64,000 nt of DNA from Escherichia coli (GTDB lineage Bacteria > Pseudomonadota > Gammaproteobacteria > Enterobacterales > Enterobacteriaceae), in the NCBI RefSeq assembly GCF_017348835.2, contig NZ_CP071375.1; one strand, given 5' to 3'. The translations under genes were made by a program, and so were the position numbers. The notes beneath the pieces were generated by a model that was not told the DNA's origin, made no database searches, and worked only from the letters and a program-made list of their open reading frames with translations. Below are positions 16,340 to 22,697 of the stretch, piece by piece (the first letter of the stretch is position 1; the number at the start of each line of letters is the position of its first letter).

Positions 16340-16987
<648 letters not shown>

Positions 16988-18947: not shown

Positions 18948-20529
18948 AAGGTTTCGGGTCGAAAATATCGGTTCCGAGATGGTTGTAATCCACCTTCTGT
19001 AACTGGAAGTTGGTGATGTATATCGGCCCGGCTTTCTTCTCAGATATAAACGGGTATTTGATGTTAATTTCCTTCGCTTTAATTCCCGTCCACTGGGAGA
19101 AAAAGCCTAAGAAGTCATTGGCTGAGCGGCGGGCTTTAATCACACGATGCGCTTTATCGTCGCTGGAAATGACCATAAAAGGCACCTGGAAATTTTGCTG
19201 ATATTTATCATCATGGGCAAGGTATTGCACGTCTTTGCCGCGCTCTTTAAAGGCCAGACCGTGGTCAGAAAAGTAAACCAGCGAGAAGCTGCTGCCGCTG
19301 TTGCGTAACTGATCGTACAGCTTGCGCAGTAAATCGTCCGTTTGCGTCATGGTATAGAGATAGCACGACGTTTCTTTCGATTGCACAAAGGTTTCGTATT
19401 TGCCTTGTGTCCGGTCGCAGGCCTGCGGATGTGAGCCCATCAGATGTAGAACAATCAGCTGCGGTTGCGAGTGCTCTTGCGCCAGCACTTGAGCGGTCAT
19501 ATCCAGTAACGCTTCGTCTTTGGTGTTTTTATCTGCTTCAAAATTACCTTCTTTCAGGAAGTACACTTCATCTGCTCGTTTGGCGATGCTGGCGATGGCG
19601 GTATCGTATTCGCCGATTTGACCCTGGTTGGAAAACCACCAGGTCTGGAAGCCCGCGCGATTTGCCAGGGTGACAAAGTTATCCTGAAACTGTGGCTTGC
19701 CATCGATAACGCGATTGAGCGTTAAGCCAAGCGATTTCTGCGTGGAGCCACTGGCGGCAATGTAGTCAGCAAATATCAAACCGTTAACGCTGCTGGCAAA
19801 CGGGGTATTGTCCCAGTGACCGCCAAAGGCACCGAGGGCATCGCGACGCGCGCTTTCACCGATCACCACCACATAGGTCTGATACTTCGGCTTAACGGCA
19901 GTGACCGTCCAGGTATCTTTCATTCCGGAAAGTTTTGCCATCCGTTCTTGCTCTTCAATCACCTCGTTATTATTGACGATGACATCCTTAGCAAAACGAA
20001 ATACCGGATAGCCAGTATCTTTCAGTTTAAATACGCCACCCCAGGCCAGGTTTTGCACGGGAGCAACAAAAAATGTCGCCACACTGAATACCAGACACAG
20101 GCTGTCGAAGGTATTCCAGCGCGCTTTTTCATTCTCTTTTTTTCGCCTGATTGCTATTACGCCGAGCGCAAAAATAAATAAGCCGACCAGGTAGCTGTAC
20201 CACGGAAAAATCGTCAGGATTTCGGTCGACTCTTCCATATTGGTGGAGTGCAATGCCAGCAATGTATTGAAATTAGGCGCGCCGTAGGCCTGAGCAAAAG
20301 GGAAATAACAAGCCGCCACCAGCGAACTGACACCGACCAGAACTTTTTGTACGCGAGGCAATGTTCGCCATAGCAAAAGCAAAATAGCCGTAAACGCAGC
20401 GGTGTAGAGCAAACTGAAGGGATAACCTAAGCCGAGGTTAATTAATAGCGACTGTAAAAAGTAGAACGCAGTCCACGGGCTAAATACCCGGCTACGGGTA
20501 ACAAGCGATTCTTTGAGGGTTAAATTCAT
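18946..20529 (-). CDS. opgE: Phosphoethanolamine transferase OpgE (YbiP)
   Basis: 527-aa ORF, N-terminal transmembrane segments plus sulfatase-like domain. Confidence 0.88.
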   Translation of the reverse strand: MNLTLKESLVTRSRVFSPWTAFYFLQSLLINLGLGYPFSLLYTAAFTAILLLLWRTLPRVQKVLVGVSSLVAACYFPFAQAYGAPNFNTLLALHSTNMEESTEILTIFPWYSYLVGLFIFALGVIAIRRKKENEKARWNTFDSLCLVFSVATFFVAPVQNLAWGGVFKLKDTGYPVFRFAKDVIVNNNEVIEEQERMAKLSGMKDTWTVTAVKPKYQTYVVVIGESARRDALGAFGGHWDNTPFASSVNGLIFADYIAASGSTQKSLGLTLNRVIDGKPQFQDNFVTLANRAGFQTWWFSNQGQIGEYDTAIASIAKRADEVYFLKEGNFEADKNTKDEALLDMTAQVLAQEHSQPQLIVLHLMGSHPQACDRTQGKYETFVQSKETSCYLYTMTQTDDLLRKLYDQLRNSGSSFSLVYFSDHGLAFKERGKDVQYLAHDDKYQQNFQVPFMVISSDDKAHRVIKARRSANDFLGFFSQWTGIKAKEINIKYPFISEKKAGPIYITNFQLQKVDYNHLGTDIFDPKP

Positions 20530-20800
20530 ATGCCACTATCGTAACAAACGCCATGTGCTTACCCTGGCGTCAAGGGTCAATACCTGCAAGAGTGCGTGAA
20601 GAGGGGAAAGGGGTCCGCATCCGCGAGCCGCAATATACGCAGGGCTGCAAGAAGATAGAGCGAGCCGCCGTTCAGGTCAACTACTGACGAACAAATCTTT
20701 TGCGAAGGGGATTGCAAATCCGACAAAAAGTGGGGTTTTTCAGACCAAAACGCGTTATGCCTGCATGAAAGCAGGAGGGAAGCGGCGTACCGCGACGCCG

Positions 20801-20929
20801 CTATTTATCGGAAGGTTTATCTTGCTGCGGTTTGTTGTTGACCATATCGCACAACATAGAGAGCAGCATTAACCGTACTTTAAAGGGAGAATGACTAAAC
20901 ACGCGCATACACCTCTTGAACTCATTCAT
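20801..20929 (-). CDS. mntS: Small protein MntS (42 aa), within the rybA transcript region
   Basis: Minus-strand ORF translates exactly to MNEFKRCMRVFSHSPFKVRLMLLSMLCDMVNNKPQQDKPSDK; too short for the ORF track. Confidence 0.85.
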   Translation of the reverse strand: MNEFKRCMRVFSHSPFKVRLMLLSMLCDMVNNKPQQDKPSDK

Positions 20930-20984
20930 AAGACCTCCTGACTTGCTAATCCCGTCGATCCTTGAGGGATGATTGCATTACATA

Positions 20985-21020
20985 CAGATATAGCACAGGC
21001 TATATTATATAGCTATTGCT
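20985..21020. promoter_or_regulatory. Candidate MntR operator upstream of mntS
   Basis: Palindrome atatagcacaggctatat plus adjacent atatagctat half-site, 60-90 bp upstream of mntS start. Confidence 0.5.
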
Positions 21021-21114
21021 AAAACGTTAATTTTTTGTACCTTCGCAACTCTGGTTTACAATGTGCGCACGAAATGAGAACGCTATGTATGCGTCACCAT
21101 AATGAGGAAGCACA

Positions 21115-21582
21115 ATGAGTCGTCGCGCAGGTACGCCAACAGCAAAAAAAGTGACGCAGTTAGTGAACGTGGAAGAGCACGTTGAAGGGTTCCGCCAGGT
21201 CAGAGAGGCGCATCGACGCGAGCTTATTGATGATTACGTTGAGCTGATTTCTGACTTGATCAGGGAAGTGGGGGAAGCTCGTCAGGTAGACATGGCTGCT
21301 CGTTTGGGAGTTTCGCAACCGACGGTGGCTAAAATGCTTAAGCGACTGGCAACCATGGGGCTGATTGAAATGATCCCCTGGCGAGGCGTGTTTTTAACGG
21401 CAGAAGGAGAGAAGCTGGCGCAGGAAAGCCGCGAGCGACATCAGATAGTCGAAAATTTCTTGTTGGTGTTGGGCGTCAGTCCGGAAATCGCCCGTCGCGA
21501 CGCGGAAGGCATGGAGCACCATGTTAGTGAAGAGACGCTCGACGCTTTTCGTTTGTTTACCCAGAAACACGGTGCCAAATGA
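21115..21582 (+). CDS. mntR: Manganese-responsive regulator MntR (DtxR family)
   Basis: 155-aa ORF; AGGAAG RBS. Confidence 0.92.
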
Positions 21583-22697
21583 GCCTGCCTTTTTTACGCA
21601 CGCTGCAAGGCGATCGTTTTTTTCAGTTATTAATTCTTGTTGGTATCGGATTAAGCTTTTTCGTGCCCTTTGCACCGAAATCCTGGCCTGCTGCTATCGA
21701 CTGGCACACCATCATCACATTAAGCGGCCTGATGCTGCTGACCAAAGGTGTGGAGTTAAGCGGTTATTTTGATGTGCTGGGGCGCAAAATGGTGCGCCGC
21801 TTTGCTACGGAGCGTCGGCTGGCGATGTTTATGGTGCTGGCGGCGGCGCTGCTTTCTACCTTTCTGACCAACGATGTCGCGCTGTTTATTGTTGTTCCGC
21901 TGACTATCACGCTAAAAAGACTGTGTGAGATCCCGGTTAATCGGCTGATTATTTTTGAGGCGCTGGCAGTCAACGCTGGTTCGCTACTGACGCCAATTGG
22001 CAACCCGCAAAATATTCTTATCTGGGGACGTTCTGGTCTTTCGTTTGCCGGATTTATTGCCCAAATGGCACCGCTGGCTGGCGCAATGATGCTGACACTC
22101 CTGCTGTTGTGCTGGTGTTGTTTCCCTGGAAAGGCGCTGCAATACCATACGGGGGTGCAAACACCGGAGTGGAAACCGCGGCTGGTGTGGAGTTGTCTGG
22201 GGCTGTATATCGTTTTTCTGACGGCGCTGGAGTTCAAACACGAGCTGTGGGGACTGGTGATTGTGGCGGCGGGCTTTGCGCTGCTGGCGCGTCGCGTGGT
22301 GTTGAGTGTGGACTGGACGTTGCTGCTGGTGTTTATGGCGATGTTTATCGACGTCCATTTACTGACCCAGCTTCCAGCGTTGCAAGACGTGTTGGGTAAC
22401 GTGAGTCATTTATCTGAACCCGGATTATGGTTAACGGCAATCGGTTTATCGCAGGTGATCAGTAACGTGCCGAGTACCATATTGTTGCTGAACTATGTGC
22501 CGCCGTCTTTATTACTGGCATGGGCGGTAAACGTAGGTGGCTTTGGGTTATTACCCGGATCGCTGGCAAATTTGATTGCGCTACGTATGGCGAACGATCG
22601 CCGCATCTGGTGGCGTTTCCATCTCTATTCAATACCGATGCTGTTGTGGGCGGCGTTGGTGGGATATGTTTTGTTAGTTATACTCCCGGCCAACTAG
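21579..22697 (+). CDS. ybiR: Putative anion permease YbiR
   Basis: 372-aa polytopic membrane ORF, 4-bp overlap with mntR. Confidence 0.88.

Follow-up and report, generated by a model that had tools for sequence, protein, structure and literature searches.

The closest described counterpart of the locus studied here is the manganese-homeostasis locus of Escherichia coli K-12, in which the small-protein gene mntS (b4705) lies divergent from the regulator gene mntR (b0817) and beneath the annotated ncRNA rybA (b4416). MntR:Mn represses mntS (PMC4361602; PMC9315381), and the RegulonDB curation lists MntR as a repressor of mntS, mntH and dps (PMC4207228). Mn(II) lowers the expression of a PmntS:egfp reporter in cells that have mntR, whereas an mntR mutant no longer responds (PMC9806134). 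MntR has also been reported to activate mntP (PMC8632737). The mntS gene lies within the RybA RNA, for which transcripts of 205 to ~400 nt with a common 5' end have been described (PMC4361602). The MntS protein binds and inhibits the exporter MntP (bioRxiv 10.1101/2023.06.02.543501; PMC4361602), and is reported to self-associate at high manganese. On the published view of its origin, argued from gene neighbourhoods, mntS is what is left of the signal peptide of sitA (Wright et al., bioRxiv 10.1101/2023.06.02.543501). For the MntR of B. subtilis, multi-site cooperative binding has been described (PMC11275975).

We analysed a window of 64,000 nt of E. coli DNA, of which the stretch 20531-21620 had a match in 5,421 of the 5,426 complete genomes of E. 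coli; identity was 100% to strain PE164 and 99.4% to K-12. The PE164 and K-12 records both annotate mntS and mntR at this locus. The gene order in the RefSeq annotation of PE164 is opgE, mntS, mntR, ybiR, ldtB, which is also that of K-12 MG1655, where rybA is additionally annotated over mntS. Genes, order, strands and spacing are all as in K-12, and the differences are strain-level SNPs only, all of which fall outside 20801-21114, a segment identical to the K-12 sequence. There are seven. Two are located downstream of mntS, one within the annotated RybA transcript (20778) and one beyond the 3' end of RybA at 20657 (20604). The other five are inside mntR: four affect a third codon position, and the fifth falls at the first position of a Leu codon.

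The first-pass annotation of this DNA, which was made from the sequence alone, had placed the start of mntR on the opposite strand about 185 bp from mntS; the spacer between the two divergent start codons is exactly 185 bp. It had described the locus as a compact manganese module of a regulator and a micro-protein, and the gene identities, divergence and spacing were all right, whilst repression of mntS by Mn-MntR is published (PMC4361602, PMC9315381, PMC4207228). We are highly confident that this is the E. coli mntS-mntR manganese-homeostasis locus, with MntR repressing mntS via the palindrome upstream of the small gene. The feature is already known and is annotated in thousands of genomes. 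The published picture is unchanged by our analysis, which adds only quantified evidence for the operator, a conserved second site and DNA-level homology with the sitA control region. The value of the check is that an ORF lost to length filters was correctly recognized, and that the operator assignment is now on a quantitative footing. The features of the locus are collected in Table 1.

Table 1. Features of the mntS-mntR locus, with positions numbered from the first nucleotide of the window
Feature	Position	Strand	Description and basis
Hairpin after mntS	20781-20802	-	8-bp, GC-rich (AGCGGCGT/ACGCCGCT); overlaps mntS stop codon; in centroid fold
RybA/mntS transcript, as annotated in K-12	20657-20996	-	340 nt, 5' end 20996; K-12 rybA b4416, 852725-853064
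mntS CDS	20801-20929	-	ATG start, 42 codons, TAG stop; identical to K-12 b4705
mntS Shine-Dalgarno AGGAGG	20934-20939	-	4 nt before mntS ATG; read from sequence
MntR operator site 1, ATATAGC-ACAG-GCTATAT	20988-21005	both	Perfect palindrome; predicted from inverted repeat and matrix
mntS promoter -10 TATAAT	21004-21009	-	7 nt upstream of annotated 5' end; inferred assignment
Probable MntR site 2, ATATAGC-TATT-GCTAAAA	21007-21024	both	Imperfect, 1 mismatch; overlaps mntS -10 box
mntS -35-like TTAACG	21025-21030	-	Read from sequence; poor match
Putative mntR promoter	21035-21062	+	TTGTAC -35 (21035-21040), 16-nt spacer, TACAAT -10 (21057-21062)
mntR CDS	21115-21582	+	155 aa, DtxR-family Mn sensor; NF008273, RefSeq annotation

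The first-pass annotation had picked out as mntS an ORF that was absent from the program-made ORF list, and in this it was correct. The ORF is missing because it is too short for the default list minimum of 60 aa; at the DNA level it is the K-12 gene, and its translation, MNEFKRCMRVFSHSPFKVRLMLLSMLCDMVNNKPQQDKPSDK, scored 96 bits against the NCBIfam equivalog NF033226 'small_MntS' (cut-off 36). The length of 42 aa falls within the family range of ~40-45 residues, and all 16 invariant columns of the family alignment, which has the N-terminal motif MNEFxRC...FSHSPF.VRL.L, are present in the window protein. Our local copy of Pfam returned no family for MntS, nor for its database orthologues; relatives in the database carry a precomputed assignment to PF26599 (MntS), and the missing family is a library-version discrepancy with no biological signal.

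To place the locus in a comparative context, MntR was scanned for in one genome per species, which gave 80 loci from ~20 named enterobacterial genera. In 77 of the 80, a divergently oriented mntS of 41-44 codons begins with ATG; two loci carried no upstream sequence, and the divergent arrangement was therefore present in 77 of 78 that could be evaluated. An alignment was built from 74 distinct intergenic sequences, including those of Escherichia, Salmonella, Citrobacter, Enterobacter, Klebsiella, Kosakonia and Franconibacter.

The annotation of a 340-nt ncRNA over the ORF in K-12 raises the question of whether the transcript is mainly a base-pairing small RNA, RybA, with the 42-codon ORF incidental. 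In its favour, PMC4361602 cites Gerstle et al. 2012 on regulation of aromatic amino acid genes by RybA, and leaves room for a role as an sRNA. We nevertheless consider this reading very unlikely. The ORF is intact with its ATG in 77 of the 80 related loci, where differences from the window sequence fall 370/125/682 at codon positions 1/2/3 and codon changes are synonymous in 590 cases and non-synonymous in 338. The concentration of variation at third codon positions, together with retention of the ORF and the 16 invariant residues, indicates protein-level selection on mntS. The Shine-Dalgarno sequence is 80-100% conserved in the 74-sequence alignment. Moreover, the phenotype of MntS overproduction is reported to be due to the protein and to be independent of Hfq (PMC4361602). 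An Rfam scan of 20300-21400 at a permissive threshold found no RybA family; the sole match was a sub-threshold sR4 snoRNA inside mntR, which was rejected as a chance match (16 bits, against a gathering score of 50). Predicted RNA folds were no more stable than those of shuffled sequences in the terminator region (z = -0.87), the mntS 5'UTR (+1.18) or the mntR leader (-0.45). Both the conservation, which is of the coding type, and the published genetics contradict a role of RybA as an sRNA alone, whilst the RNA may have a secondary role.

The start of the mntS transcript was taken from the K-12 rybA annotation and transferred to the window by coordinate mapping, and it is relative to this position that the -10 box was assigned. 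A consensus promoter scan did not call the mntS promoter, because its -35 element is weak. Downstream of the coding sequence, no canonical intrinsic terminator was found: the hairpin that overlaps the stop codon is not followed by a T-run, and a terminator scan of the region was negative. We regard this hairpin as a weak terminator lacking a T-run, which fits the reported ladder of 205 to ~400-nt transcripts (PMC4361602). In two related loci (L039 and L040), a T-run does follow the equivalent hairpin.

The first-pass annotation had proposed a palindrome upstream of mntS as a plausible MntR operator, to be compared with the MntR sites of mntH and mntP. The palindrome is present, and is centred on the annotated 5' end of the transcript. 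A repeat finder gave arms (20988-20994 and 20999-21005) that are 100% complementary and separated by a 4-nt spacer, within which the annotated rybA 5' end falls, such that site 1 spans about -9 to +9 of the mntS transcript. The proposed comparison was favourable, as the core ATAGC-N4-GCTAT, located at 20990-21003 in site 1, is also perfect at K-12 mntH (4724-4737 of locus L002) and mntP (3310-3323 of locus L003), as well as at dps within the window (16893-16906). A further copy with one mismatch is found at mntP, 40 bp from the perfect one. Alignment of six MntR sites gave the inverted repeat A(C/T)ATAGC-N4-GCTAT(A/G)T, which is common to the operators of mntS, mntH, mntP and dps. The positions of these sites differ. 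At dps and at mntS the operator overlaps a -10-like hexamer; at mntH it is found 17-30 nt ahead of the annotated ATG, and the two mntP sites, 40 bp apart, are ~370-420 bp upstream of the ATG. The two sites at mntS are adjacent, at a distance of 19 bp.

To quantify the match, a position weight matrix was trained only on the three K-12 mntH and mntP sites, all of which lie outside the window. In the 64 kb, the mntS palindrome ranked first with 23.4 bits, the dps site second with 12.3 bits and mntS site 2 third. The best score in 100 simulated sequences averaged 9.2 +/- 2.9, with a maximum of 18.1. As a match to the MntR matrix, site 1 is statistically secure. In the 74 aligned sequences, 17 of its 18 positions are at least 95% conserved and the arms are invariant. 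From these properties we infer that site 1 is the site used by MntR at mntS. Neither a footprint nor a mutational test of this exact palindrome was found in the accessible papers, none of which came up when their full text was searched for the operator strings; the published reporter evidence (PMC9806134) is at the level of the whole promoter.

An AT-rich inverted repeat could arise by chance, or could be purely a core promoter element, with MntR acting elsewhere or indirectly. The region is indeed AT-rich and includes the -10 box and the start site, and some of the conservation could be due to promoter function alone. This explanation is nonetheless extremely improbable. The core occurs twice in the window against 0.05 copies expected, with none of 100 shuffled sequences having two matches, and both occurrences are in promoters of genes repressed by MntR (PMC4207228). 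With a matrix derived from independent sites, the palindrome ranks highest in the window and outscores every one of the 100 null sequences. The arms contain G and C positions that a -10 box does not require, and these never vary among the 74 sequences; the core also precedes sitA beside mntR in another locus (see below). We therefore retain the MntR operator as the reading of site 1.

The second copy of the core in the window belongs to the dps promoter, where ATAGCACCGGCTAT is separated by 50 nt from the downstream start codon and has positions in common with TATACT, a -10-like hexamer (dps CDS 16340-16843, - strand). The perfect core at dps fits the known repression of this gene by MntR. A separate observation concerns the mntS 5'UTR, where the segment 20977-20987 (ATTACATACAG) is almost invariant in the 74 sequences, with no variation at 9 of 11 positions. 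The segment corresponds to +10 to +20, beyond the 18 bp of the palindrome, and has no equivalent in the sitA locus L085. It could represent an extended MntR contact, an element with a function in the 5'UTR, or the -35 of the + strand promoter-like sequence ATTACA-18-TATATT.

A longer imperfect inverted repeat revealed a second, probable MntR site, 19 bp from site 1 centre to centre and spanning about -11 to -28 of the mntS promoter. By score alone, site 2 is not above chance, with 7.9 bits against null third-best scores of up to 8.8. Its arms are conserved in 73-74 of the 74 sequences, and in 13 of these position 21022 is T, which gives a perfect core. The conservation of site 2 is inseparable from that of the -10 box that it overlaps. 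Both sites are at fixed offsets from mntR in 74 of 78 loci.

The arrangement suggests the following model of control. At low manganese, apo-MntR would leave the promoter free, and RNA polymerase would start at ~20996 on the - strand to make the RybA/mntS mRNA. The 42-residue MntS would then bind MntP and inhibit manganese efflux, such that cytoplasmic manganese rises. At high manganese, Mn-MntR would bind the palindrome centred on the start site and probably also occupy the adjacent, weaker site 2 over the -10 box. Mn-MntR bound at either site would exclude RNA polymerase and shut mntS off, closing a negative feedback loop. The geometry of the sites fits repression by steric occlusion of RNA polymerase, and the position of site 2 suggests that it too may be occupied by MntR. 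The locus is a published model of how a micro-protein adds a fast post-translational layer, the inhibition of MntP by MntS, to a metal-sensing transcription circuit.

The locus is also a published model for a small protein arising from the remnant of a signal peptide, and our data bear on this origin. When 1.84 billion representatives were searched with a profile built from 16 MntS variants, there were 35 matches, among them N-terminal fragments in which FSHSPFRLRLML precedes a signal-peptidase motif; one fragment of 147 residues bears a ZnuA domain. A word-indexed protein search returned only MntS orthologues among the top 120 listed, and the SitA N-termini were reached via the representative search. 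In locus L085, the contig that encodes one of these fragments, an mntR gene (73% identical) is divergent from sitABCD across 188 bp, and the N-terminus of SitA carries FSHSPFRLRLML. There the motif is a signal peptide that can be cleaved off, with an AQA motif, and that is joined to a binding protein of the ZnuA family, with ABC transporter genes downstream, whereas in E. coli only the 42-residue remnant is left.

The intergenic region of L085 contains GTATAGCACAGGCTATAC, with the core and the ACAG spacer as in E. coli site 1, and also a second ATAGC-containing site and GGTTTACAATG. The presence of the operator core, the second site and GGTTTACAATG at matching positions indicates that the control regions of mntS and sitA are homologous at the DNA level. 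This is consistent with the published model of the origin of mntS, to which it adds a small piece of evidence. As a side observation, the sitA gene of L085 (1859-2811) is broken into two ORFs, one for a 50-aa N-terminus resembling MntS and the other for a 267-aa ZnuA domain. The break coincides with nine consecutive A, and either an error in sequencing the homopolymer or a true frameshift may be responsible.

On the other side of the intergenic region, the identity of MntR is supported by a score of 269 bits against the equivalog NF008273 (cut-off 153) and by a match to PDB 2H09, the solved E. coli MntR, over residues 1-155 (E = 1.7e-97). The protein contains PF01325 (42 bits) and PF02742 (53 bits), both above cut-off, which correspond to an N-terminal winged-helix DNA-binding domain and a C-terminal metal-binding and dimerization domain. 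The two domains are shared with the family of B. subtilis MntR, DtxR and IdeR. The solved chains of B. subtilis MntR can be aligned to residues 38-145 of the E. coli protein, leaving an N-terminal extension of ~37 residues outside their coverage, and the operator sequence of E. coli MntR is specific to enterobacteria. At its 3' end, mntR shares the sequence ATGA (21579-21582) with ybiR, the stop codon of the one overlapping the start codon of the other, and the two may thus form an operon with translational coupling. The YbiR protein, of an anion-transporter family, is uncharacterized.

Conservation also points to a putative mntR promoter (Table 1). Its TTGT.C and TACAAT elements are invariant or nearly so in the 74 sequences, with flanks at ~59-61%, and TTTACAATG is also kept in the mntR-sitABCD locus. 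An alternative + strand candidate, ATGAGA-18-CATAAT (21074-21103), was rejected as the sequence is poorly conserved. Closer to the gene, the mntR leader motif TGCGTCAC (21090-21097) is perfectly complementary to GTGACGCA (21151-21158), which lies within codons 13-15 of mntR; the loop of the pairing would hold the ribosome-binding site, and the central 5 bp are conserved in the 74 sequences. This 8-bp pairing was rejected, as it shows no compensatory changes and its outer pairs are broken in 16-20 of the 74, which leaves a conserved motif.

The back-to-back arrangement of this conserved candidate promoter with the mntS promoter allows for the possibility that the two MntR sites are a bidirectional control element, which also regulates transcription of mntR-ybiR. 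The centres of the sites would lie at about -53.5 and -72.5 of a predicted mntR start near 21069, K-12 annotates MntR as a dual regulator, activation of mntP has been reported (PMC8632737), and the promoter-like ATTACA-18-TATATT on the + strand overlaps site 1. However, the mntR start is predicted rather than mapped, the + strand promoter calls are consensus matches only, and no accessible paper reports autoregulation by MntR in E. coli. We regard autoregulation through these sites as unlikely, and repression of mntS as their principal reading.

The block 20977-21040 has a mean identity of 95% in the 74 sequences, compared with 59-73% in flanking segments. It is tempting to speculate that these 64 bp are a compound bidirectional region derived from an ancestral mntR-sitABCD locus, in which two adjacent Mn-MntR dimers would repress mntS cooperatively and tune mntR-ybiR, although as a whole we consider this proposal doubtful. 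The part that concerns inheritance of the block from mntR-sitABCD is supported by the DNA-level resemblance to L085, in agreement with the published gene-neighbourhood argument.

Two related loci depart from the common arrangement. The sole loss of mntS was observed in Citrobacter sp. R56 (L015), where unrelated DNA encoding a 265-aa cysteine/histidine-rich ORF replaces mntS and the left arm of site 1 (2330-2400 of the locus). The palindrome is interrupted by the junction, with site 2 and mntR still in place, and the locus represents a naturally occurring loss of mntS. In Leclercia adecarboxylata (L040, 2155-2405), a GC-rich insertion of ~250 bp with internal repeats, GCGCTGGCC...GGCGAGGCC, lies between mntR with the TTAATTTTTTGT/TACAAT block on one side and mntS with the two MntR sites on the other.
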